A stretch of 64,000 nt of DNA. It comes from Clostridia bacterium (GTDB taxonomy: Bacteria; Bacillota; Clostridia; Oscillospirales; SIG627). Shown piece by piece: positions 6,686 to 61,935 of the stretch (position 1 is the first letter of the stretch; the number at the start of each line of letters is the position of its first letter). The notes beneath the pieces were generated by a model. The model saw nothing but the letters and a program-made list of their open reading frames with translations. It was not told the DNA's origin and searched no databases. The stretch covers positions 53,521-117,520 of the forward strand of contig JAFUKG010000032.1 in NCBI GenBank assembly GCA_017467865.1. The letters are read 5' to 3'. The position numbers were made by a program, and so were the translations under genes.

Positions 6686-7702
6686 ATGTCGAAGAAGAGA
6701 GTTGCCCTGATAGGCTGCGGTACTATTTCAAGAGTTCATCTTGTCAGCATAAATGCGTGTGCAAAAGCAGAGCTTGTTGCGGTAGCTGACGTAATAAAAG
6801 AGAGAGCTGAAAGGTGCGCCGAGGAATTTTCTGCCCGAGCTTACACTGACTATAAAGAGATGGTGGAAAAGGAAAAGCCTGACTGTGTACATATATGCTT
6901 ACCTCACTTTCTTCACGCTCCTGTATCTCTTTGGTGCATGGAAAGAGGAGTGAGCGTTCTTGTGGAAAAGCCTATTGCCACAAATCTTGAGGATGCACTC
7001 CTTATGGAAAAATGCGCAGAGGTGAACGGCGTTACCCTTTCGGCAGTTATGCAAAACCGTTACAACACGGGTACCCTTTTTATAGAAAAGACGTTACGTG
7101 AAGGAGCTTTGGGCAAAATCCTCGGAGCTCGGTGCTCTGTCACTTGGTTTCGTAATCAAAGCTACTATAACGAGGCTCCTTGGCGTGGAAATATTGCCGA
7201 GAGCGGCGGCGGAGTAATTATAAATCAAGCAATACATACCATTGACCTTATGCATCATTTTGTAGACTCTAAGGTTGTGAGAGTGGACTCCACCATAGCC
7301 AAAAGAGGAAGATGCAATATTGAGGTAGAGGACAGCGCCGAGGGCATTATTGAATTTGAAAACGGGGTTCTTGCAAACTTCCATGCCATCAATTGCTATT
7401 CCGACAATTCCCCCGTCTTTCTTGAATTGCATTGCGAAAAGGGACGGGTGCAGATGCTATCGGATAAAGCCACAATCTACTTTAACGACGGCAAAGCTGT
7501 GTCCTCGGATGCGGGAGAAGACAGCTTTGACTACGGTGACGTTAAGGAATATTGGGGTGCAAGCCATATAAAACAGATTTTTGATTTTTACGACCATCTG
7601 ACCTCGGGCACACCCATGAGAGTGACCTTTGACAGCGCTCTTGAAACACATAAGCTTATTTGTGATATATATGAAAACGCAAGAAAAAAAGAGTCTCGAT
7701 GA
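6686..7702 (+). CDS. Gfo/Idh/MocA family oxidoreductase
   Basis: The start is the ATG at 6686, after the RBS AAAGGAG. KRVALIGCGTISRVH is a Rossmann motif and the C-terminal half has typical length. The terminator overlaps the stop codon. Confidence 0.8.
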   Translation: MSKKRVALIGCGTISRVHLVSINACAKAELVAVADVIKERAERCAEEFSARAYTDYKEMVEKEKPDCVHICLPHFLHAPVSLWCMERGVSVLVEKPIATNLEDALLMEKCAEVNGVTLSAVMQNRYNTGTLFIEKTLREGALGKILGARCSVTWFRNQSYYNEAPWRGNIAESGGGVIINQAIHTIDLMHHFVDSKVVRVDSTIAKRGRCNIEVEDSAEGIIEFENGVLANFHAINCYSDNSPVFLELHCEKGRVQMLSDKATIYFNDGKAVSSDAGEDSFDYGDVKEYWGASHIKQIFDFYDHLTSGTPMRVTFDSALETHKLICDIYENARKKESR

Positions 7703-49178: not shown

Positions 49179-50219
49179 ATGAACAAGAGATTTTTAGCTT
49201 TACTGTTAGTTCTTGTATTAACACTTTCCTCTTGCTCTTCGGTGAAGAGCGAGACGGTGTTCGCATACGGCGATGCAGTAATGAACGAGAACCTGTATTT
49301 TTACGAGCTTGCCATGATGAAGACTCAGCTTTTGCAGGAGTATTCGGGGGCGACCACCGACGTGCCTGCCCTTTGGGCAAGTGAGATTGGTGAGAACGTA
49401 ACCTTTGGCGATTACGCATACGCACAGTGTCAGATGAATATTGCCACCGTTCTTTTCTTCGCTGATTACGCTATGAAAAACGGGGGCGAGCTGACAAGTG
49501 AAGATAAAAAGACCATCGACACCGCAATTGATGATATTATAAGCGAGATGGGTTCAAAGTCGGCGGTAAACAAATATCTTGAAACCTACACCATAAACCT
49601 TGATATGTACCGCGACTATCTTGAGCTTTACGCCCTTTATAACAAGGGCATCACCCTTGCCTACTCCGAAAACGGCGATTATGCTATCACGAGAGAGGAT
49701 ATGATGGAGTACTACAAGAATAACTTCGTCACCGTGAAGCACATCGCTATCGGCACCGAGTATGCAGGCACCGACGAGGACGGAAATTTCGTTTATTACA
49801 CCGAAGAGGAGAAGAAGGAAAAGCGCGAGCTTATCGACTCCATAACCACAGCCCTTGAAAACGGCGAGGACTTCGACAAGTTCTATTCTCTCAGCGAGGA
49901 TAAAAGCCATGAAACCTACCCCGACGGCTACACCATAACAAAGGGAGTCCTTGACACAAGTATGCAGGGCTACGAAAACGTTGCCTTCGCTCTTGCGGAA
50001 GGGGAGTGGGATACCTTCGAGCTTGAGGGCACAAGCCTTTATATAATCAAGCGTGTACCTCTCCTTGAATCGGACTTCACAAACTGCGCCAATAACATTC
50101 TCACCACTCTTGTGCAGGTGGATATGGCAGAAACAGTTATTGAAAACTACGATAACTTTATTATGAATCAGGATATTATCGACAACTACAATATGGCGAT
50201 GGTGCCCGTTGTTTCTTAA
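49179..50219 (+). CDS. PrsA/SurA-like foldase lipoprotein (degenerate parvulin domain), paralog 1
   Basis: The lipobox is LTLSSCSS. FVTVKHIAIG...DGYTITKGVL..VAFALAEGEW..LYIIKRV has parvulin-like topology. Confidence 0.65.
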   Translation: MNKRFLALLLVLVLTLSSCSSVKSETVFAYGDAVMNENLYFYELAMMKTQLLQEYSGATTDVPALWASEIGENVTFGDYAYAQCQMNIATVLFFADYAMKNGGELTSEDKKTIDTAIDDIISEMGSKSAVNKYLETYTINLDMYRDYLELYALYNKGITLAYSENGDYAITREDMMEYYKNNFVTVKHIAIGTEYAGTDEDGNFVYYTEEEKKEKRELIDSITTALENGEDFDKFYSLSEDKSHETYPDGYTITKGVLDTSMQGYENVAFALAEGEWDTFELEGTSLYIIKRVPLLESDFTNCANNILTTLVQVDMAETVIENYDNFIMNQDIIDNYNMAMVPVVS

Positions 50220-50231
50220 AGGAGAAAAGTA

Positions 50232-51263
50232 ATGAAAAAGATAATTCTCGCCCTTCTCTTTATTTTTGTTTTTACGTCTTGTGCTTCCAATGACGATGCG
50301 TGGTCTCTTTCCTGCGGCGACACCAGTCTTTCACCGGGCTCATTTTACGCTCAGGCGGTAACCTATAAAAACGATTTCCTTCAAGGATATCTTGGTCTTA
50401 CAGAGGACAGCGCCTCCATATGGACTCAGGATTCTCCCTCGGGGGGCAACGAAAGCGTGGCAGACTCCCTTATGAGAATGGTAGTTGAGGATATGACTCA
50501 ATTCGTATGGGTAGTAGAATACGCCAAGGACAACGGTGCGGTGGTTACAGAGGAAGAGAAAGAAAGCCTTCAGAAGGACTTTGAAGAGATGAAGTCGGGC
50601 TTTACCGACAATGAAGCTTTCCTTGAGTATATCGGCAAGCTGAACGTGACCGAGGAGGAGCTTCACGCCCATCTTAACGAAACGCTCTACTATGACAAGG
50701 GCTTTGAAATGCTCACCTCAGAGGGTGGACTTTATGCCGTTTCTGACGAGGACCTCTTGGAATATTACAAGAATAATTTCTATACCGTCAAGCACGTGTT
50801 CTTTAACGACGTTACTTCAACCGACGAAGAGGGAAACACCGTGACTCTCACCGAGGAGGGCAAGGCAGAAAAGCTTGAAAAGGCGAAAAAAGTTATAGCC
50901 GACCTTGACGAGGGCATTCCCTTTGAAACTCTTTATATGCTCAGCGAGGACGGAGCTTCTACCTCTTTCCCCGATGGTATGACCATCGCCCAGGGCTTTA
51001 CTTCCGACGCTTCCTATGAAGAGGAAGTAATGGCACTTGACATTGGCGAATACAAGCTTATCATCCCCGACAACGGCGGTGTTTACGTAGTGAAGAGAAT
51101 GCCTGTGGATGAGGGTGCCTTCGAGGAATACTATGACTACGTTTACAGTGCAGTGTGTCAGGAGATAACCGAAAAGATTTATTCCGATCATAAAAACGAG
51201 GTGACGGTAAACTACGACCTAATCAACACCTTTGATATTAAGGCGATGCCCGTATTGAATTAA
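50232..51263 (+). CDS. PrsA/SurA-like foldase lipoprotein, paralog 2
   Basis: The lipobox is VFTSCAS. FYTVKHVFFN...DGMTIAQGF..VMALDIGEY..VYVVKRM is colinear with the upstream paralog. Confidence 0.65.
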   Translation: MKKIILALLFIFVFTSCASNDDAWSLSCGDTSLSPGSFYAQAVTYKNDFLQGYLGLTEDSASIWTQDSPSGGNESVADSLMRMVVEDMTQFVWVVEYAKDNGAVVTEEEKESLQKDFEEMKSGFTDNEAFLEYIGKLNVTEEELHAHLNETLYYDKGFEMLTSEGGLYAVSDEDLLEYYKNNFYTVKHVFFNDVTSTDEEGNTVTLTEEGKAEKLEKAKKVIADLDEGIPFETLYMLSEDGASTSFPDGMTIAQGFTSDASYEEEVMALDIGEYKLIIPDNGGVYVVKRMPVDEGAFEEYYDYVYSAVCQEITEKIYSDHKNEVTVNYDLINTFDIKAMPVLN

Positions 51264-54277: not shown

Positions 54278-54766
54278 ATGAAAAAATTAATTTTGGTACT
54301 CGTCGCCCTTATCCTTACTTTTACGGGCTGTGAAAAGGAAGAAATTGCAGCGGAAGATCCAAAGATACCTCTTGAAGAAAAGTATTCAAATGAGTGGACG
54401 ATTGAAATGACCGTCAGCGACGTTACCCCCACGGGGCTGAAGGGGAAAATCACCCATTCGGGAGACAACGTGAATGCAATAACCGGTTCAAGATTTGTTT
54501 TGGAAAAGCTTGTTGACGGTGAATGGACAGAAGCGGATGCTCTTTGTGAGCCGGCGTGGTATTTACTTGCATATCCTATTCCCAACAACGACAGCTATGA
54601 GTTTGATGTGAATTGGGAGTGGCTATATGGAACTCTTCTCTCAGGTCATTACCGCATAGTTAAGGATGTAAGAATAGAAGGTACTCGCCTTAATGAATAT
54701 CAAGGTATTAAGAGAATAGAACACTTCATAGAAGAAAAAATACTTTATGCAGAATTTGATATCTGA
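54278..54766 (+). CDS. Hypothetical lipoprotein
   Basis: The lipobox is LTFTGCE. The 162-aa protein is beta-rich, and I recognise no family. Confidence 0.7.
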   Translation: MKKLILVLVALILTFTGCEKEEIAAEDPKIPLEEKYSNEWTIEMTVSDVTPTGLKGKITHSGDNVNAITGSRFVLEKLVDGEWTEADALCEPAWYLLAYPIPNNDSYEFDVNWEWLYGTLLSGHYRIVKDVRIEGTRLNEYQGIKRIEHFIEEKILYAEFDI

Positions 54767-54795
54767 AAAAACGGCGGAGAAATCCGCCGTTTTTT
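54766..54795. terminator. Bidirectional intrinsic terminator between convergent genes
   Basis: aaaaaacggcgga-gaaa-tccgccgtttttt. Confidence 0.8.
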
Positions 54796-56734
54796 AATGT
54801 TTATATACTTTTGCTATGATTAAACCTATTATGAGAACTGAAAAAGATACTATAAGCCATAGCCCTTCACCGCTTTGGGAATTATTCATTTCATCAGCAT
54901 TCACGTTAAAGCTATTAAAACTGCGCTTTTGTGTCTGTTCTCTATCTGTGAAGGGTTGTTTTGTGCTTTGCTCAGGATCTTCGGTGTCGGAGTTTTTTTC
55001 AAAGCTGGGTTCCACCCCGATATTTTCCATATCTTGTGAGACGTTGGCGTTTTGCGGTGAGGTGAAATCTTTACTTTTATCAAAATTGTTTTCTGTGCTC
55101 TCGGTATTCTTATTTCTATCGTTAAGACCCATACCCATAGAGCCCATGTTTGAAATATTTAACGAAGAAGCGTCCGAGTAGTTGGTGTTGTTTGTAGTTT
55201 CACCGTTTTCAAGCTGTAAGGCGATGCTGTTGGAACGAAGAGAGCAGAATTGACGCAGAGCCTCTACACCGTTTTCAAATTCTTCGTAGGTGTAGAATGC
55301 TGTGGGATCCCTTTCTACGTATGATTTGATAAGGTTATACGCATCGTTGATTATGCCCTGAACGTCAACTGTGTTCAGAAATTCAGTAAAATACCTATGA
55401 TATTGCTGGGTATATTCTTCGTTTTGTACTATCCAGTTCCACATGGGGCGATCCTCGCCGTTTGCGTTGGAAACGGGAGAATCTATGGGAGTATTGACTG
55501 TGCTTTGACCGTTACCGCCTTGGAAGGTGCCATATGCAAGATTGTAATCCCAAGGAATCATGGCCATTTTTCCGTCTTCCTCATACAGATAGTAGTTATG
55601 AATCATTGAGCCTGTGTAGCTATCACCGTTGCAAACGTAGTTGTGAACAACGAAATAGCGCATGACCTTTTCGACGTCTACAACAGATTCTATCTGATCG
55701 CCCTCAGATAGCTTTTTCAGGGACTCAATGAGCCTTATTTGGTCGGCTTCTGTAACGTCGGTTTTGGCGTTGTTCCAAATGTTTGAGTAGCTGGAGATAT
55801 TATCGTCTACGTATTGAAGTTTTACGTCTGAAGAGCCCATCCCTCCAAATCCGCCTTTTCCTCCGAAGGAAAATCTATCGCCGTTTTCAGAATTGGACTC
55901 TCCTTGTGTCATATCGGGTATCTGCGGTGCATTGCCCTGCATCTGAGAGGGATCGAAGCTACTCATAGCAGGCACGTTTGCGCTGAACGTTGAGGAAGGG
56001 TCAAAGCTTTCTCTGTCCGGCATAGGCATACCTTGCTCGGAGTCGATGGCTGGCTTTTCGTTATTTACAAAATCTTCTATGTTAAAGTCCTTGCCGTTGC
56101 CCCGTCCACCGCCAAACCCTGTGCTGTCGGGCTTATACAGTTCTCCGTAGCTTGTTCCATAATTACGTTCAAGAAAGCTGTCCTCAACACCTTCCACTGC
56201 AAGATACAGTCCCCAATCCTCACCGTTGACGGTGATGTACGCAAAACTGCAAAGGGGAGATGCGGCATCAAACTCGTTCATCATGGTGTAGGTCAGATAG
56301 TCCTTCATCATGGTGGCGTCTTGTATCAAATTATTGAGAGCCAGCTTGTCAAGTCCGTGATAGGTGATAGAGCTGTCATAGTGGTCGAATTCCACCTTGA
56401 AGCTGTATCGGTCACTGTTCATAGAGGCGACGTTGGAAAGAGAAGTGTTGCCTTTACCGCGTATGGCGACGTTTTTATATGCCTCACCGTCTATCACTAC
56501 GGTGGCGGTGTAGTATTCCTCGCTTGACGCGTTATCAATAAACTCTTCCCAATTGTTCATTACAATATCAATGGTGTGCACCCTTGTATTGTCAAACAGA
56601 CGGTTTTCGTATCCCATAGTACTTGCCATAACCTCAATGCCAAGAGCCGGACCGTTCATAAACAAAATGGTGATGATTAGTATTATGGCTGTGACAGACC
56701 ACGCTATCTTGTCAAAATACTTACTTTCTGACAT
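54794..56734 (-). CDS. CotH kinase-family protein, membrane anchored at both ends
   Basis: HTIDIVMNNWEEF..YYTATVVIDGEAYKNVAIRGKGNTS..RYSFKVEFDHYD..LDKLALNNLIQDATMMKDYL.. is typical of CotH. There is an N-terminal signal-anchor, a low-complexity region, and a C-terminal TM helix (LWLIVSFSVLIIGLIIAKVY). Confidence 0.85.
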   Translation of the reverse strand: MSESKYFDKIAWSVTAIILIITILFMNGPALGIEVMASTMGYENRLFDNTRVHTIDIVMNNWEEFIDNASSEEYYTATVVIDGEAYKNVAIRGKGNTSLSNVASMNSDRYSFKVEFDHYDSSITYHGLDKLALNNLIQDATMMKDYLTYTMMNEFDAASPLCSFAYITVNGEDWGLYLAVEGVEDSFLERNYGTSYGELYKPDSTGFGGGRGNGKDFNIEDFVNNEKPAIDSEQGMPMPDRESFDPSSTFSANVPAMSSFDPSQMQGNAPQIPDMTQGESNSENGDRFSFGGKGGFGGMGSSDVKLQYVDDNISSYSNIWNNAKTDVTEADQIRLIESLKKLSEGDQIESVVDVEKVMRYFVVHNYVCNGDSYTGSMIHNYYLYEEDGKMAMIPWDYNLAYGTFQGGNGQSTVNTPIDSPVSNANGEDRPMWNWIVQNEEYTQQYHRYFTEFLNTVDVQGIINDAYNLIKSYVERDPTAFYTYEEFENGVEALRQFCSLRSNSIALQLENGETTNNTNYSDASSLNISNMGSMGMGLNDRNKNTESTENNFDKSKDFTSPQNANVSQDMENIGVEPSFEKNSDTEDPEQSTKQPFTDREQTQKRSFNSFNVNADEMNNSQSGEGLWLIVSFSVLIIGLIIAKVYKH

Positions 56735-56740
56735 ATGCTT

Positions 56741-57412
56741 TTACCCCATATAATCGCCGTTATAGGAGACGATTACTGCACTGTTTACTCCCGTCATTTC
56801 GGAAAGAACGTTGATGAAATCTGTGTCGTCTTTCTTCAGGCGGACTTCGATATTTATTTCAATAGCGCCCTTGACGGCAGATTTGCTCTTGAGTGTTGTG
56901 CGGGCTGTATTTTTTTCTATAAAGTCTCTTGCCTTGACTTCCGCATCGTGATTTTCACAGCTCAGCACTATCATGTAAGGTCGGGTATGGGATTTCTTAT
57001 TTACAAAAATAAGAAGGATTATACCGATTGATACGCTTCCGATTATAGCAAGAGGAATCATACCTGCTGCCAGGATAATACCTACACCGATAGACCAAAA
57101 TAAAAATGCAATATCAAGGGGCTCCTTAATGGCAGTACGGAAACGAACGATAGAGAGTGCACCCACCATACCCAACGAGAGAACCACGTTGGAGGTTACG
57201 GCGAGAATGACGATAGACGTAATCATAGTAAGAGCGATGAGCGTAGTTCCGAAGCCTGCGGAATACATCACACCGCGGTAGGTTTTCTTATAAACGAGGA
57301 AGATGAAAAGACCGATGCCGAAGGATAGCACAACGGTCAGCAGCATATCAAGTAGATTGACGGAGGATACGTTTTCGAGAAAGCTTGATTTAAAAATATC
57401 GTTAAAATTCAT
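56741..57412 (-). CDS. DUF4956 domain membrane protein
   Basis: ALSIVRFRTAIKEPLDIAFLFWSIGVGI is the hallmark motif. There are four to five TM segments followed by a C-terminal soluble domain. Confidence 0.8.
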   Translation of the reverse strand: MNFNDIFKSSFLENVSSVNLLDMLLTVVLSFGIGLFIFLVYKKTYRGVMYSAGFGTTLIALTMITSIVILAVTSNVVLSLGMVGALSIVRFRTAIKEPLDIAFLFWSIGVGIILAAGMIPLAIIGSVSIGIILLIFVNKKSHTRPYMIVLSCENHDAEVKARDFIEKNTARTTLKSKSAVKGAIEINIEVRLKKDDTDFINVLSEMTGVNSAVIVSYNGDYMG

Positions 57413-57447
57413 AGTTGGATTTACTCCTTTGTTTTATTTGTTGTTAC

Positions 57448-58119
57448 TTAGTCATACATACGGCAGGCGGCATATTTGGAAAAAGCCGCGCTGTGTCTGC
57501 CCTCAAGCTGCACTGCATCCCGAATGACGTCGGGCAGAAAGCTATCCCACTTTACTTCAAGGATGCAAGGGGACTCCTTTATGGGAACGGTGACACAATT
57601 GGGATTGAGAAAATCCGTGCAGCTCATACTTGTACGAATACCGTAATCCAGTGTTATACGGACGTTTCCCGGTGCGAATATAAAGGGCTCGCGGGTATAG
57701 TCCACAATGACCTTAGCTTTAAGCCCTTCGTTACGAAGGTGAAGGTAAAAGCCGAGAAGCGCTTCGTTGTTACTGCGAGCCATCCATTCTACGTCTCCGT
57801 CGGCAATAGCCTGCGCCTCTTTCGGGGACAGGGAGACAGAGCTTTTATATCCAAGACCGCCATGCTTGAATTTTCGCTCCAAATGAATTACCGAGGGGTC
57901 GTTGTTATACAGTCGGATGCGGTATTTTTCACGTATATTTACGCCGTCGAGCTTTTCCCTCAGCGCCTTGTCGTCAAGGGTGTCAAAATACAAGCTTCGT
58001 ATTTCATATTTCCCGTTTACAGCATGGGGGTCAGAGCTCATTACCGCCTTCAGCCTTTGACGCAGAATAAGCATATCCGCTTCATTTATTTCATGCTTTA
58101 CTTCATGTCTGAATTGCAA
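57448..58119 (-). CDS. VTC-domain (polyphosphate polymerase / CYTH-like tunnel fold) protein
   Basis: The start is a TTG at 58119, after the RBS AAAGGAGGA. FRHEVKHEI..YEIRSLYFDT..REKYRIRLYN..IHLERKFK matches the strand pattern of the bacterial VTC domain. Confidence 0.8.
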   Translation of the reverse strand: MQFRHEVKHEINEADMLILRQRLKAVMSSDPHAVNGKYEIRSLYFDTLDDKALREKLDGVNIREKYRIRLYNNDPSVIHLERKFKHGGLGYKSSVSLSPKEAQAIADGDVEWMARSNNEALLGFYLHLRNEGLKAKVIVDYTREPFIFAPGNVRITLDYGIRTSMSCTDFLNPNCVTVPIKESPCILEVKWDSFLPDVIRDAVQLEGRHSAAFSKYAACRMYD

Positions 58120-58179
58120 AACAGTATTCCTCCTTTCTATGGAAGTTATTATACTTTCCTTACCTATGAATTACATTAG

Positions 58180-58216
58180 AAAAACCTTCCCTTGTGTGAA
58201 CGAACAGGGGAAGGTT
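58180..58216 (-). terminator. Terminator-like hairpin between the kinase gene and the VTC gene
   Basis: On the minus strand, aaccttccc-(16 nt)-gggaaggtt is followed by tttttc. The short T-run suggests partial termination. Confidence 0.5.
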
Positions 58217-58236
58217 TGTGAATATTTATTGAAATA

Positions 58237-59457
58237 TTAGATTTTTGCCGTAAATCGAATAGTGTTGGGTGAAGAATATTCTGCTATCAGCTTACCGCCG
58301 AAGCTCTCACAGATAGCACGTGCGGCGGATAACCCGATTCCATAGCCAGAGGAATCCTTTTTTTGAGTTCGGGCAAAATCCCCTCTGTAAAACCGTTCAA
58401 ACAGCCTTTCGGGGATTGGCTGGGGAGTTGGATCGCAGGTGTTTTCTTCGACAATGCGCACGTGTTTGCCCTCCGTCAGGAGTGACAAACTGATATATCC
58501 GTCGTCGGGCGTGTATTTTAGGGCGTTATCAAGAAGGATAGTCAGCATTTGGGCAAAACTGTCCTTGTTAGTCTGAATGATAACGTCGGGCTCGATATGC
58601 ACACAAAAATGCAGCTTCCTTGTTTGAGCATCTTCCATATAAACGGGGAGCATTTCGTTTGTAAGCTCACTGATATTCACGCGCTCTGTGGGCAGGGGGA
58701 TTTCTTCATCGAGTCTGGCAAGGGTGAGAAGGTTTGACATCAGCACGTTTAACCTCTTGGTTTGACTGCGGATGTGCAAATTATACTTGTTTTCACCGTG
58801 GATAAGTGCCATTGTATCGTTGTTCGATTGAATGATTGCAAGGGGTGTTTTCATTTCATGCCCTGCGTTTGTGATAAATTGCTTCTGCTTTTCCATTCCC
58901 GCAAGGACAGGGCGTATGACCTTTCCCGAAAGCAGGATAACGATAATCAAGAGGATTCCCCAACACAAAACGGCTATTATGCATGAAGCGGACAAAACCA
59001 TACGAAAGCTCTCGTTTTGCTCCGACGTGTCCATAAAAAACGTGAGTTGAAGAGAATCGGTCTTTTTGACGGCGTATTTATATTCTTTTATTCGTCCGAA
59101 TTCTTTTCCTTTCTTCAGTGCTTTTAAGGCGTAGGACTTTGCGGTCTCTTCATCTATCGAGGATATTTGCTCGGTATTTACGTCAACAACGTTACCGTCT
59201 TCATCGCTACTGACAATAAAAAAACGCGAAGAACGCATTCTGTCCATATTAAGAGGACGGGAAAACGGAGGGGGACGGTCAAAATCCATTTTGTGAAATG
59301 CACCGTCGGCATCCACAAGAGTTTCTAAGACTGCATCGGATTGGCGTTCCAGCATTAGCCAATTAAGAGAGTTGATCGCAAGTACTATGAATATGAGCAG
59401 GCAAGTAACTGCCGTCATAGTGAAAATGACAAACCGTCTTTTTAGAATTCTTGTCAT
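58237..59457 (-). CDS. Sensor histidine kinase (two TM segments, HisKA + HATPase_c)
   Basis: The H-box is FITNAGHEMKTPLAII, the N-box region is DNALKYTP, and the G-box is SGYGIGLSAARAI. A periplasmic loop of about 120 aa lies between the TM helices. Confidence 0.9.
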   Translation of the reverse strand: MTRILKRRFVIFTMTAVTCLLIFIVLAINSLNWLMLERQSDAVLETLVDADGAFHKMDFDRPPPFSRPLNMDRMRSSRFFIVSSDEDGNVVDVNTEQISSIDEETAKSYALKALKKGKEFGRIKEYKYAVKKTDSLQLTFFMDTSEQNESFRMVLSASCIIAVLCWGILLIIVILLSGKVIRPVLAGMEKQKQFITNAGHEMKTPLAIIQSNNDTMALIHGENKYNLHIRSQTKRLNVLMSNLLTLARLDEEIPLPTERVNISELTNEMLPVYMEDAQTRKLHFCVHIEPDVIIQTNKDSFAQMLTILLDNALKYTPDDGYISLSLLTEGKHVRIVEENTCDPTPQPIPERLFERFYRGDFARTQKKDSSGYGIGLSAARAICESFGGKLIAEYSSPNTIRFTAKI

Positions 59458-60134
59458 GGCTTAAGCTCCAATTTATATCCGATATTGCGCTTTGACACAA
59501 TATCCGCCTTAGAACCCATCGCAGAAAGCCTCTTGCGCAGATAAGAAACGTATAGCCATACACTGTTCAGGTCGGTTTCGGCGTTGTAGCCCCAAGCTCT
59601 CATCAAAAGTTCTTCGGTAGACATATATATTGATTGATTGAGCATAAGCTGCTCCAAAAGACGGTACTCTTGCTTTGGCAATTGGAAAGATGCGCCGTTT
59701 ACCTTGATTTCCCCCGTTTGCATATTTAAATTGAGGTCTTCAAAGATAATCAAATCAGAATGGTATTCCTCTCTGCGTCTGAGCATAGCGCGTATTCTGG
59801 CGATTAGCTCCCCCATATCAAACGGCTTTGAAAGATAATCGTCGGCACCGCAGTCCAATCCCTTGATGCGGTCCTCTACTTGAGCTTTTGCCGTCAGTAA
59901 TAACACGGGAGTTGTACAACCGCTTTTGCGCAAGTGGGACAAAACCTCTATGCCGTCAAGTCCCGGCATCATTATATCAAGAATAATTCCGTCATATTTG
60001 TTAACGCTGGCATAATCGTAGGCATCGGAACCGTTGTAAACAGGGTCTACGATATATTTGTGGTAAGTAAGATAGTCAACCACCGCTTCGGAAAGGGCGG
60101 GTTCATCTTCTGCATATAGCAATCTCATTTTCAT
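59454..60134 (-). CDS. OmpR-family response regulator
   Basis: The start is the ATG at 60134, after the RBS AAAGGAGTA. The receiver is LLYAEDEP...ILDIMMPGLDG...LTAK, and the winged-helix output is LEQLMLNQSIY..VSYLRKRL..RNIGYKL. The gene overlaps the kinase start by 4 nt. Confidence 0.9.
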   Translation of the reverse strand: MKMRLLYAEDEPALSEAVVDYLTYHKYIVDPVYNGSDAYDYASVNKYDGIILDIMMPGLDGIEVLSHLRKSGCTTPVLLLTAKAQVEDRIKGLDCGADDYLSKPFDMGELIARIRAMLRRREEYHSDLIIFEDLNLNMQTGEIKVNGASFQLPKQEYRLLEQLMLNQSIYMSTEELLMRAWGYNAETDLNSVWLYVSYLRKRLSAMGSKADIVSKRNIGYKLELKP

Positions 60135-60340
60135 ACTCCTTTCTGAATTCTTTTGTATCATATCATGAGAATGTGACCTCAAAGTAAACAATTATAAAAT
60201 ATAATACTTTATTTAACTAAGATATACCTTTGAATTTTTGCAGTTTTTTAACGTAAAAACAAGCTCTCTGTTTTTGTTAAAAATGACTATTGAAGGCTTT
60301 TTGCCTTTGTGCTATAATGCAGAAAAAAGGAGGGAATATT

Positions 60341-61093
60341 ATGAAGGTAACCTTACAGATAGATTACAAAAAGGCTTTCGACACCGAATATTTGGCATTT
60401 CTCAAGGAAGCGGGATATGACGGCGTAGAGCTTCTTTTGAATGGGGAATTAACGAACCCCGAAAAAGCAAAGAAGAACATAGAGAATGCAGGACTTATCA
60501 TGCCTCAGACGGAGATAGTGAAGGACAACGTTGAAGAGGGACTTCGCGTTTCGGCTCTCTTTGGCGTTAAGTGGGCATGCTTACAGGGAGAAATAAACTA
60601 TGATACCAACCTTATAGTAAAATCAATTCCCCTTGCAGAGAAGTACGGAGTGGGAATTGCTCTTGAAAATCCTGCAAGATACAGTAATTACATAGATGCG
60701 TTTTGCATTTGGGTGGACTCCTTTAAGAGCGAGTGGATAGGCGTTTGCTATAACCCTGCCCACACAAACATTATCGGTAACGATGATTTCGGTCTTAAGA
60801 AGTTTGACTTTGACAGAATTGAAGCCTTGAAAAAGGTAGGAAGCAGAATAAAGATAGCTCATATGAACGACAACAACGGAGACGTGGACCGCAAGATGGC
60901 TCCCACCATTTCCAGCACTCCGTGTTGTATAAAGTGGAAGGAAACCCTTGACGCTTTCTCGGAGGTTAAATTTGACGGTGCCTTCTCGTTGGTGCTTGAT
61001 ATTAACTTCGGAAAGTATGACCTTGAGCGCGACTATCTTAAGTTCGCAGTTAACGTGTCGAAAATTCTACTCGGAAAGGAAGTGGCAAGATGA
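60341..61093 (+). CDS. Sugar phosphate isomerase/epimerase (xylose isomerase-like TIM barrel) family protein
   Basis: The start is the ATG at 60341, after the RBS AAAGGAGGG. AGYDGVEL...ALENPAR...IAHMNDN is the typical metal-ligand pattern. An extended -10 promoter, TGCTATAAT, lies about 30 nt upstream. Confidence 0.7.
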   Translation: MKVTLQIDYKKAFDTEYLAFLKEAGYDGVELLLNGELTNPEKAKKNIENAGLIMPQTEIVKDNVEEGLRVSALFGVKWACLQGEINYDTNLIVKSIPLAEKYGVGIALENPARYSNYIDAFCIWVDSFKSEWIGVCYNPAHTNIIGNDDFGLKKFDFDRIEALKKVGSRIKIAHMNDNNGDVDRKMAPTISSTPCCIKWKETLDAFSEVKFDGAFSLVLDINFGKYDLERDYLKFAVNVSKILLGKEVAR

Positions 61094-61935
61094 AAAAATC
61101 CTTATCAATAAACGACAGAGTGTTCAATAATCTTGACCACCTCAAAGGCTATAAGGCGGCAGGCTTCGACGCTATCGACTACACCTGCGGATGGGGGCAT
61201 CTTTTAAGGGATGATAGGGAAGAGAAGATAGCAAAGGCAAAGGAAAACCTTGCTGAAGCCGGTATCGAGTGCTACTCCATACATATGCCTTGCTACAACA
61301 TCTTCTTACAGCCCGATGAACTGAACGATGCTAAGGAAGAGGAGATAAAGCGCTCCCTTGAAATGGCAGGAAAGCTTGGCGTAAAGTGGTGCGTAATGCA
61401 TCCCATGGGCACAATCGACGACGTGCATACCGCTAAGTGGATTATAGAGAAGAATGCAGAAAACGCAAAGCGCTATCTTGAGATAGCCGAAAAGGCGGGC
61501 ACCGCAATAGCACTTGAAAACGTGCCCCACTTCGGAGACTGCCCTCAGTACGTGTTTATAACTTCAATTGTTGAAAATCACCTTGAGATTGTTGAAAAGG
61601 TTGGCTCACCTAATTTCCAGGTATGCTGGGATTTCGGACACCAACAGCTCAACATCTCGGATGCCGACAAGCTTCAGACCGTCAAGACGGCTGCAAAGTA
61701 TATCAGAGCATTCCACTTCCAGTCAAACTACGGAAATATGGACTGGCACTTTGCTCCCTGCTTTGGCAACGTGGATTGGAAGGATATTGTAAAAACTGTG
61801 TATGACGCAGGATATAACGGAAGCTTTAACTTAGAGGTAGACATAGACAGAGTTCCCGTTGACTGCCTCTTCGAGCATTATAAGCTTTATTCAAGAATGA
61901 TTGACGAAATAGTAAAGGACGCAGGCGTGTGTTAA
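61090..61935 (+). CDS. Sugar phosphate isomerase/epimerase family protein (second, tandem)
   Basis: AGFDAIDY...VMHP...ALENV...WDFGH...FNLEV fits the family. The gene overlaps the upstream stop by 4 nt. Confidence 0.7.
   Translation: MKKSLSINDRVFNNLDHLKGYKAAGFDAIDYTCGWGHLLRDDREEKIAKAKENLAEAGIECYSIHMPCYNIFLQPDELNDAKEEEIKRSLEMAGKLGVKWCVMHPMGTIDDVHTAKWIIEKNAENAKRYLEIAEKAGTAIALENVPHFGDCPQYVFITSIVENHLEIVEKVGSPNFQVCWDFGHQQLNISDADKLQTVKTAAKYIRAFHFQSNYGNMDWHFAPCFGNVDWKDIVKTVYDAGYNGSFNLEVDIDRVPVDCLFEHYKLYSRMIDEIVKDAGVC

Follow-up and report, generated by a model that had tools for sequence, protein, structure and literature searches.

Genes for a VTC-domain protein, a DUF4956 membrane protein and a CotH-family protein are found side by side in several described loci. 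Whitfield et al. (2020) described cotH, PPP, DUF4956 and DUF4832 as accessory genes contiguous with pelDEADAFG in streptococci, clostridia and bifidobacteria. In Streptococcus intermedius (SIR_1592-1594; mBio 2025), aggregation fell on deletion of either the DUF4956 or the CotH gene, with Pel raised in the first case and lowered in the second, and the authors stated that the trio was not found outside Pel loci. The trio is also listed in NELoc-2 of Clostridium perfringens, with DUF4956 annotated there as 'tubulin/FtsZ'. Here we describe a cassette in which these three genes stand without Pel genes and follow a two-component system (TCS), in a 64,000-nucleotide stretch of a Clostridia bacterium genome (assembly GCA_017467865.1, contig JAFUKG010000032.1, positions 53,521 to 117,520, forward strand), hereafter the window. 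Such stand-alone cassettes are common and are a counter-case to the mBio 2025 statement. The trio is thus already known as a set of Pel accessory genes, and what is new is the stand-alone, sensor-controlled form with a swappable ectoprotein. An initial annotation of the window, made from its sequence, had described the trio as having no experimentally defined function; this is slightly out of date, since deletions of all three genes exist in S. intermedius.

In the yeast VTC complex, basic residues lining the transmembrane (TM) channel are needed for polyphosphate (polyP) translocation, and the R264A/R266A/E426N form of Vtc4 is the catalytically dead one used for the cryo-EM structure (PMC9911596). 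CotH of Bacillus subtilis phosphorylates coat proteins, and its D228Q and D251A forms are inactive. For DUF4956, the S. intermedius study (mBio 2025) gave a reading as an MgtC-type TM part with an ACT domain. For bacterial VTC-domain proteins, no functional study turned up in the literature searched.

The proteins of the five open reading frames (ORFs) in the window were assigned with Pfam models. The initial annotation had described five co-oriented minus-strand genes, with a 4-nt overlap of the regulator and kinase genes, and both the coordinates and the overlap were confirmed. Its gaps of 36 and 7 nt were each off by one; the measured spacings are 35 nt between VTC and DUF4956 and 6 nt between DUF4956 and CotH. 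The features of the locus, in the order of transcription, are as follows.

59454-60134, minus strand: OmpR/PhoB-type response regulator (Pfam Response_reg, E 9.8e-29; Trans_reg_C, E 4.2e-16)
58237-59457, minus strand: sensor histidine kinase (HisKA, E 3.1e-08; HATPase_c, E 5.4e-14)
58217-58233, minus strand: degenerate direct repeat TTCAAT-N5-TTCACA, just 3' of the kinase stop codon
58178-58214, minus strand: intrinsic terminator of the TCS operon, with stem-loop CCTTCCC...GGGAAGG at 58185-58214 and T-tract TTTTTCT at 58178-58184
58163-58179, minus strand: direct-repeat 'box A', CTAATGTAATTCATAGG, with 11-bp periodicity, filling the -35 region; candidate site of the adjacent response regulator
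58148-58153, minus strand: -10 hexamer TATAAT of the VTC-DUF4956-CotH operon, without a recognisable -35 hexamer; like geometry in related loci
57448-58119, minus strand: VTC-domain triphosphate-tunnel protein, 223 amino acids (aa) (PF09359, E 2.9e-37); candidate polyphosphate polymerase
56741-57412, minus strand: DUF4956 membrane protein, 223 aa (PF16316, E 8.2e-11)
54794-56734, minus strand: CotH-family kinase-fold ectoprotein, 646 aa (PF08757, E 9.8e-61, 206 bits)
54766-54795, either strand: strong bidirectional terminator with a 13-bp stem, ending the cassette operon and common to the convergent Big_14 lipoprotein gene

The identical five-gene block was found on three independent metagenome contigs. 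The window belongs to a metagenome assembly of an uncultured Clostridia bacterium, and the nearest named relative is Agathobaculum desmolans, whose DUF4956 protein is 87% identical. No exopolysaccharide, Pel, glycosyltransferase (GT), DUF4832 or polyphosphate-kinase genes were found in the 64-kb window.

The spread of the cassette was followed by scanning one genome per GTDB species with an alignment of 12 VTC sequences, which matched at least 600 stretches, of which at least 599 were confirmed. Synteny was counted in the best 80 of these at least 599 confirmed loci, all from distinct species and with VTC proteins 58-83% identical to that of the window. These 80 loci are one clade, nearly all from metagenome-assembled genomes (MAGs) of gut or rumen Clostridia, and the counts rest on in-house ORF calls and family hidden Markov models. 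DUF4956 followed VTC directly on the same strand in 65/69 loci whose flanks were long enough, at a median gap of 29 nt, and an anchored ectoprotein was encoded within four genes after VTC-DUF4956 in 56/58. The co-occurrence of the trio beyond this genome, which the initial annotation had expected, was borne out by these counts. A TCS lay no more than three genes upstream of VTC in 38/63 loci, co-directional in 22 and divergent in 16. The five-gene arrangement is far beyond chance. No further family recurred among the 66 same-strand downstream genes (maximum 2/66) and the 58 related loci were free of GT, Pel and DUF4832 genes downstream of the trio; the lack of any other recurrent downstream family indicates that the module is autonomous in this clade. 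In A. desmolans, the five genes keep their order between unrelated flanks, with phosphotransferase system genes and TnpV upstream and PfkB, MgtC and TctABC downstream. The same cassette in wholly different surroundings argues that it travels as a unit. Adjacency of VTC, DUF4956 and CotH was kept even at 31-36% VTC identity, on plasmids of Pseudobutyrivibrio and Planococcus. On the former (pNP95) the trio lies inside a cluster of GT2, GT4, GT61, acyl- and pyruvyl-transferase genes, and on the latter the order is VTC-DUF4956-CotH-X-HEAT-chitin-synthase-like GT2, the layout of NELoc-2.

The third gene of the cassette is variable. Across the 58 loci it encoded a CotH protein in 39 and a Cthe_2159 protein in 17, and it was absent from 2. 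Cthe_2159 proteins (PF14262) are β-helix carbohydrate-binding proteins, and the Pfam matches had E-values of 1e-50 to 2e-89. The two types were told apart by alignment-column statistics, re-alignment and Pfam, and the 17 proteins (loci L019, L024, L029, L030, L034, L040, L043, L044, L046, L049, L050, L057, L058, L074, L081, L084 and L086) had nothing in common with CotH. Ectoproteins of both types are built alike: 62/63 have an N-terminal hydrophobic segment, 48/63 end in a TM helix and a short K/R tail, and each type contains a polar or Gly-rich low-complexity region. GFGG/GGFG segments occurred in 24/43 CotH proteins, 11/18 Cthe_2159 proteins and 3/345 other proteins, and the Gly-rich segment common to the two may be functional. 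Since either type stands beside a constant VTC-DUF4956 pair, the ectoprotein can be regarded as a swappable effector. We regard as well supported that VTC-DUF4956 is the invariant core of the cassette and that the third gene is a swappable membrane-anchored ectoprotein. The presence of an adjacent TCS tracks the CotH type (26/33, versus 3/14 for Cthe_2159; Fisher p = 6e-4).

The CotH protein of the window has an N-terminal hydrophobic segment at residues 10-28 and a C-terminal TM helix at 625-643, followed by a basic tail. The initial annotation had proposed such a doubly anchored protein of 646 aa with its kinase-like domain outside the cell, and the same C-terminal arrangement in related loci agrees with this. 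The two anchors and the basic tail place the CotH domain outside the cell, unlike that of the Bacillus spore-coat protein. The domain is split by a Gly-rich insert of ∼90 aa (residues 206-297, ∼55845-56119), and a polar stalk of ∼120 aa leads to the C-terminal anchor. Alignment to Bacillus cereus CotH (5JD9) keeps the NGD (D371), HN (N380) and PWD (D396) motifs; among related loci D396 never varies, and the true-CotH subgroup also keeps D371 and N380. By this alignment, and given a numbering offset between the B. cereus and B. subtilis proteins, D371 and D396 would correspond to D228 and D251 of B. subtilis.

The related loci also gave some separate observations. In A. desmolans (L004-L007), TnpV and DUF6809 genes precede the cassette, and at 1.5-3 kb beyond CotH, on its downstream side, there are two genes for genuine MgtC paralogues; in one of these genomes, GCA_046973465.1 (L005), CotH is broken into three ORFs. 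Four loci labelled with other lineages (L014, L016 and L056, labelled Anaerolineaceae, Chloroflexota and Leptolinea, and L086, labelled Atopobium) carry the same cassette, with VTC genes 61-74% identical to that of the window. Such Clostridia-like cassettes in MAGs of other phyla reflect either horizontal transfer or mis-binning. On a plasmid of Hymenobacter volaticus (L090, Bacteroidota), a DUF4956 gene at 6917-7585 has no detectable VTC neighbour, so DUF4956 is not always paired with VTC. Its neighbours are a TolC-family gene, genes for a protein sorted by the type IX secretion system and for a TMEM260-like glycosyltransferase, and a divergent TCS.

It is well supported that the window cassette consists of two transcription units, a regulator-kinase operon ending at a conserved intrinsic terminator, and VTC-DUF4956-CotH expressed from its own promoter. 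The initial annotation had noted a terminator-like hairpin at 58180-58216. The terminator was right (stem-loop 58185-58214 with a T-tract), the description of it as weak was not: the predicted free energy is -13.5 kcal/mol, with a z of -4.4 against shuffled sequences. A hairpin with a T-run was present in 17/25 co-directional related loci, the stem sequences being divergent, and A. desmolans shows a compensatory change. Together, these features mark it as a real terminator. In both the window and A. desmolans, the spacer between kinase and VTC contains, in order, a TTCAAT-N5-TTCACA repeat, the hairpin, the T-tract, CTAATGTAATTCATAGG, TATAAT without a -35 hexamer, and AGGAGG-N8-TTG.

A direct repeat, box A (YTWAK-N5-6-YWWARG), was found in 14/25 loci with a co-directional TCS, at positions -55 to -67 relative to the start codon, and in 0/16 loci with a divergent one. 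A different repeat, box B (TYCAG-N6-YTCAG), was found in 10/16 divergent-TCS loci. The background expectations per 150 nt are 0.007 for box A and 0.003 for box B, and the boxes hold a fixed position beside the -10 hexamer. Box A was not over-represented across the window (8 matches versus 8.2 expected), so only its position and its recurrence across species are informative. The recognition helix of the regulator covaries with the box: it reads SVWLY(I/V)SYLRKRL..KRNIGY at box A loci and NHVE(V/A)YVGFLRKKL..RRLGY at box B loci; that of the window regulator, SVWLYVSYLRKRL, falls in the box A class. A direct repeat in place of the -35 hexamer, together with covariation of box and helix, is the signature of class II activation, and it is most likely that the adjacent OmpR-type regulator binds box A and activates VTC-DUF4956-CotH in this way. 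The box-helix covariation and the conserved arrangement of terminator, direct repeat and -10 hexamer support the signal-dependent TCS control suggested in the initial annotation. Autoregulation is suggested in A. desmolans, where the regulator gene, too, has a box-like repeat and then TATAAT upstream of it.

The regulator has a receiver domain with the conserved Asp53 in LDIMMP, and a winged-helix domain. Its true start is probably the ATG at 60128, giving 224 aa, since this codon is better spaced from the ribosome-binding site, AGGAG; a regulator of 224 aa is also what one gene call on a metagenome gives. The kinase has TM helices at residues 10-28 and 158-176, flanking an extracytoplasmic loop of 129 aa, and the H-box histidine is His200 in HEMKTPL. 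The sensor loop matched no known domain in Pfam, and neither kinase nor regulator reached an equivalog cut-off in NCBIfam, those of PhoR and PhoB included.

One further repeat was noted upstream of VTC. A TT[ACT]A[CT]A direct repeat with an N5 spacer, matching at 11 or more of 12 positions, was present in 27/76 VTC upstream regions at about -90 to -120; elsewhere in intergenic DNA it occurred at ∼0.07 per 200 nt, and the window copy is degenerate (10/12). This TTCACA-type repeat resembles the Bacillus PhoP-box consensus. It was left out of the model, its enrichment being moderate and the window copy degenerate.

The VTC protein matches PF09359 at 128.9 bits against a cut-off of 23, over residues 3-219 of 223. 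Its gene starts at a TTG preceded by AGGAGG-N8. The protein is a stand-alone domain, and the lack of a predicted TM segment or signal peptide indicates that it is cytoplasmic. The family is large, with 4,802 representative clusters (50% identity) at E ≤ 1e-3. A profile built from 49 diverse homologues matched yeast Vtc4 (3G3Q) with an E of 9.5e-11. In the profile alignment, Vtc4 residues K200, R264, R266, K281, K294, Y359, R361, R373, E426, S457 and K458 corresponded to K8, R67, R69, K83, K92, Y141, R143, R154, E188, S214 and K215 of the window protein, respectively, and all 11 of these tunnel positions were invariant or at least 90% conserved in the 49 homologues. Hothorn et al. (2009) reportedly assigned K200 and K458 roles in tunnel catalysis. 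The AlphaFold2 (AF2) model of the window protein (pLDDT 94.7, pTM 0.90) was compared with the PDB using Foldseek; the top 13 matches were all VTC tunnel domains, with Vtc4 3G3R first (E 8.9e-13, TMq 0.72), and ygiF, CYTH and ThTPase proteins ranked below them. The initial annotation had hinged on the tunnel Lys/Arg residues being kept, and they are. The window protein has neither an SPX domain nor the C-terminal three-helix TM domain, and there is no Vtc1/DUF202-like gene in the cassette. On sequence and model grounds, it is a candidate Vtc4-type polyP polymerase with its mapped tunnel residues intact.

Natural VTC-DUF4956 fusions were sought among long VTC homologues (365-488 aa) and rejected, as these carry N-terminal extensions only and no DUF4956 domain. 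Four homologues (P0331, P0328, P0364 and P0340) have extensions of 140-260 aa that are very basic, rich in R, K, P, E and Q, of low complexity and without a Pfam domain; such extensions could be polyanion-binding tails or mis-called starts.

The DUF4956 protein has a fixed length of 223 aa and is more conserved than VTC, being 62-85% identical where VTC is 58-83% identical. Residues 70-122, 53 in a row, are almost invariant across 24 species and read LAVTSNVVLSLGMVGALSIVRFRTAIKEPxDIAFLFW..GI.LAAG..PLA; the core includes SIVRFRTAIKEP. From hydropathy and the positive-inside rule, the protein is predicted to have an outside N-terminus and about five TM helices. The basic segments KKTYRG, RFRTAIKEP and NKKSHTR and a C-terminal domain of ∼85 aa are predicted to be cytoplasmic. 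In the AF2 model, residues 145-216 form a cytoplasmic βαββαβ ACT-like domain (pLDDT ∼75), and the best PDB match is the C-terminal domain of Mycobacterium tuberculosis MgtC (2LQJ, E 1.9e-4, TMt 0.66). By sequence, there was no match to Pfam MgtC at E up to 0.01, the match to NCBIfam PRK09977 (MgtC/SapB; E 7.8e-7, 28.9 bits) fell below the cut-off of 214, and hhalign against an A. desmolans MgtC was not significant (probability 0.7%), showing a resemblance of motifs. JGI labels homologues 'YhiD'. DUF4956 thus looks like a distant relative of the MgtC/YhiD superfamily rather than of the VTC channel.

The model that best accommodates these features is coupled polyP synthesis and export to a surface effector, a reading drawn from sequence that we hold tentatively, at less than even probability. 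An envelope signal would act through the TCS to bring about production of the Vtc4-like tunnel enzyme, which would polymerize polyP from ATP at the inner face of the membrane. The enzyme would be docked on DUF4956, which would accept the chain at its invariant basic RFRTxIK loop and cytoplasmic ACT-like domain. DUF4956 would then pass the polyP across the membrane, or help to do so, and in this would be analogous, not homologous, to the Vtc1/3/4 channel. Outside, the anchored ectoprotein would work on polyP or together with it, plausibly on cell-surface glycans. CotH might draw phosphoryl groups from polyP or link it to glycans or proteins of the surface, and Cthe_2159 might bind polyP together with a cell-surface polysaccharide. 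What the analysis shows is gene content, synteny, residue conservation, fold, topology and promoter layout; we infer the polyP synthesis, the export by DUF4956, the substrate and donor of CotH, and the signal.

Several points weigh against such a pipeline. The VTC deletion in S. intermedius gave no aggregation phenotype (mBio 2025), which counts mildly against a strict version of it. MgtC relatives are viewed as regulators of phosphate and ATP homeostasis rather than as channels, and the biochemistry of MgtC is itself unsettled. The initial annotation had cast DUF4956 as a piece of a split VTC complex; this is contradicted by the apparent membership of the MgtC/YhiD superfamily described above and by a search of the PDB with the DUF4956 profile, which retrieved no VTC chain even at E up to 10, so that any role as a polyP channel would be non-homologous. 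The AF2 model of DUF4956 is poor overall (pLDDT 64) and permits no conclusion on a pore, TM packing or VTC docking, so only its C-terminal domain was used. In strand β1, the bacterial VTC proteins have R-x-E-x-K and keep a glutamate (E6), shared with hydrolytic tunnel enzymes, where Vtc4 has Thr. The CotH ectodomain is strongly acidic, with 94 D/E and 40 K/R. The initial annotation had also seen polyP as the donor for a CotH kinase starved of ATP outside the cell. As the general logic of VTC-DUF4956 this does not hold, since in 17/58 loci a non-kinase Cthe_2159 protein occupies the CotH position, and feeding a kinase would be at most one use of the polyP; moreover, ATP is present outside cells in gut contents and could serve an ectokinase as donor. 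The regulatory motifs are post hoc, having been derived from the sequences in which they were counted. The most ambitious form of the model, namely that the cassette is the first dedicated bacterial Vtc4-type system for polyP synthesis with concurrent export, independent of PPK1/PPK2, working through a non-homologous MgtC-superfamily protein, feeding CotH with polyP instead of ATP and controlled by a TCS in abundant gut and rumen Clostridia, we consider doubtful.

The alternative that survives best is that the trio is an accessory system for surface glycan or exopolysaccharide modification, without polyP export. CotH would be a glycan or matrix-protein kinase (compare the Fam20B/POMK type), Cthe_2159 a carbohydrate binder, and VTC and DUF4956 would regulate or energize polymer production from the cytoplasmic side. 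The contiguity with pelDEADAFG, the proximity to a chitin-synthase-like GT2 and a HEAT protein in NELoc-2 and on the Planococcus plasmid, and the transferase cluster around the trio on pNP95 all fit this well, as does the supply of the alternative third gene from a carbohydrate-binding family. So do the S. intermedius phenotypes, in which deletions of DUF4956 and CotH alter Pel and aggregation and deletion of VTC does not. The stand-alone loci fit it less well. The window and the 58 related loci have no glycosyltransferase, Pel gene or other recurrent partner, implying that the module can work without a dedicated polysaccharide synthase, and the invariable pairing of a putative, catalytically intact polyP polymerase with a membrane protein is left unexplained. 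We rate this explanation as possible but less likely than the export model; it is partly compatible with the export model, in that the substrate could be a glycan and the donor polyP.

A role in cytoplasmic phosphate, ATP or Mg2+ balance seems unlikely. Here VTC would make cytoplasmic or membrane-tethered polyP, which the basic cytoplasmic tails of some VTC homologues could hold, DUF4956 would be an MgtC-like regulator of phosphate uptake or ATP synthesis, and the ectoprotein would merely be co-expressed in a common response to envelope stress. The affinity of DUF4956 to MgtC/YhiD points this way, as MgtC modulates phosphate and ATP homeostasis, although the hhalign comparison with MgtC was not significant. 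The kinase core is most similar to kinases of the PnpS/PhoR type, at scores far below their cut-offs, and the enriched upstream TTCACA-type repeats are PhoP-box-like. However, bacteria normally make cytoplasmic polyP with PPK1/PPK2, and a near-obligatory gene for an anchored ectoprotein, at gaps of ∼10 nt, finds no explanation in this scheme.

The VTC protein might instead be a tunnel-fold hydrolase or cyclase, such as a tri- or polyphosphatase or a nucleotide-signal enzyme, with its activity governed by the state of the ectoprotein through DUF4956, so that the trio would form a trans-membrane signalling device; we consider this very unlikely. The triphosphate-tunnel superfamily does contain triphosphatases and cyclases, which are the next-best structure matches (ygiF, CYTH), and E6 of the β1 ExK motif is kept. 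The best matches in both sequence and structure are specifically VTC domains, however, the equivalent of K458, which separates active Vtc4 from the inactive Vtc2 and Vtc3, is conserved, and a dedicated TCS already does the signalling. That CotH is a Bacillus-like spore-coat protein kinase with unrelated neighbours is hardly credible despite the Pfam match, the conserved catalytic Asp residues and the phosphorylation of coat proteins by B. subtilis CotH, given that membrane anchors put the domain outside the cytoplasm, that synteny with VTC-DUF4956 is conserved, and that the trio occurs in non-sporulating streptococci and bifidobacteria.

The remaining genes of the window are housekeeping genes (SecA, SecDF, a P-type ATPase, AsnB, Alr, Mfd, PrsA-like lipoproteins, an AraC regulator and sugar-phosphate isomerase-like genes). 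A tandem pair of PrsA-like lipoprotein paralogues, of which one shows a weak match to rotamase, lies at 49179-51263 on the plus strand, and the Big_14 lipoprotein gene at 54278-54766, also on the plus strand, converges on the cassette terminator; conservation of these lipoprotein genes with the cassette was not seen elsewhere. Upstream and divergent (60290-61935, plus strand) are two xylose-isomerase-like TIM-barrel genes. These were rejected as a part of the system, being present at 0/80 related loci. A weak member of the xylose-isomerase-like family also precedes VTC on the Planococcus plasmid (L089, 4470-5396), and the likeness to the window is probably a coincidence. An antisense ORF of 254 aa (57415-58179, plus strand) covers the whole VTC gene and is longer than it; several related loci likewise have antisense ORFs longer than the true VTC, DUF4956 or CotH genes. 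The ORF over VTC is probably a codon-usage artefact.

Bacterial polyP synthesis is ascribed to PPK1/PPK2, and the placement of surface polyP in probiotics and pathogens is unexplained. In gut and rumen species numbering at least in the hundreds, a Vtc4-like enzyme is tied to an ultra-conserved membrane protein and a surface ectoprotein, which makes a testable candidate for a polyP export route. If export is true, the cassette would be a new kind of bacterial system and the MgtC/DUF4956 fold would gain a transport function. The cassette also gives access to the biochemical function of that fold and to the phosphoryl donor and the substrates that extracytoplasmic CotH kinases use. Any model has to allow for the exchange of CotH for Cthe_2159, which marks the ectoprotein as a modular effector. 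Experimentally, the stand-alone, sensor-controlled cassette is a cleaner entry than the Pel-embedded forms, and the mapped promoter box gives a direct way to the inducing signal.

Compared with the yeast Vtc4/Vtc3/Vtc1 complex, the window cassette keeps the tunnel fold and the mapped catalytic and tunnel residues, and a cytoplasmic enzyme is genetically tied to a polytopic membrane protein with conserved basic residues. The logic proposed here, synthesis coupled to membrane passage, would also be that of yeast. Unlike in yeast, the enzyme lacks SPX and fused TM domains, the membrane partner is MgtC-like and not a three-helix Vtc1/DUF202 protein, a TCS would take the place of inositol pyrophosphates in control, polyP would end up outside the cell instead of in a vacuole, and an anchored ectoprotein is added as a third component. 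DUF4956 itself resembles MgtC/SapB/YhiD in having a polytopic N-terminal part followed by a cytoplasmic ACT-like domain, but it belongs to a separate Pfam family and has the invariant SIVRFRTAIKEP core and, in the cassette, an obligatory pairing with VTC. The CotH protein has the same domain as the spore-coat Ser/Thr kinase CotH of Bacillus (5JD9/5JDA), with D371 and D396 matching its catalytic and metal-binding Asp residues and N380 its Asn. Sequence identity is low (E 3e-9), and the window protein is extracytoplasmic and doubly anchored, has a Gly-rich insert and a stalk, and lacks a link to sporulation.

As in the Pel accessory genes, the same three families are tightly syntenic and CotH is predicted to be secreted or at the surface; in the window, however, the trio is without pel, DUF4832 or GT genes, has a dedicated TCS and the order VTC-DUF4956-CotH, and its CotH has a C-terminal TM anchor where the Pel-locus protein has an FN3 domain. 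NELoc-2 and the Planococcus maritimus plasmid share the order and adjacency of the trio, but continue into genes for a ∼690-aa protein, a HEAT-repeat protein and a chitin-synthase-like GT2, whereas the window cassette ends at a terminator. Its predicted promoter is like the class II promoters of PhoB and OmpR, in which 11-bp-periodic repeats abut the -10 hexamer, a -35 hexamer is absent and the regulator is encoded next door, while the predicted boxes themselves (CTAAK-N6-CWTAGG and TTCAG-N6-TTCAG) have sequences peculiar to this system.

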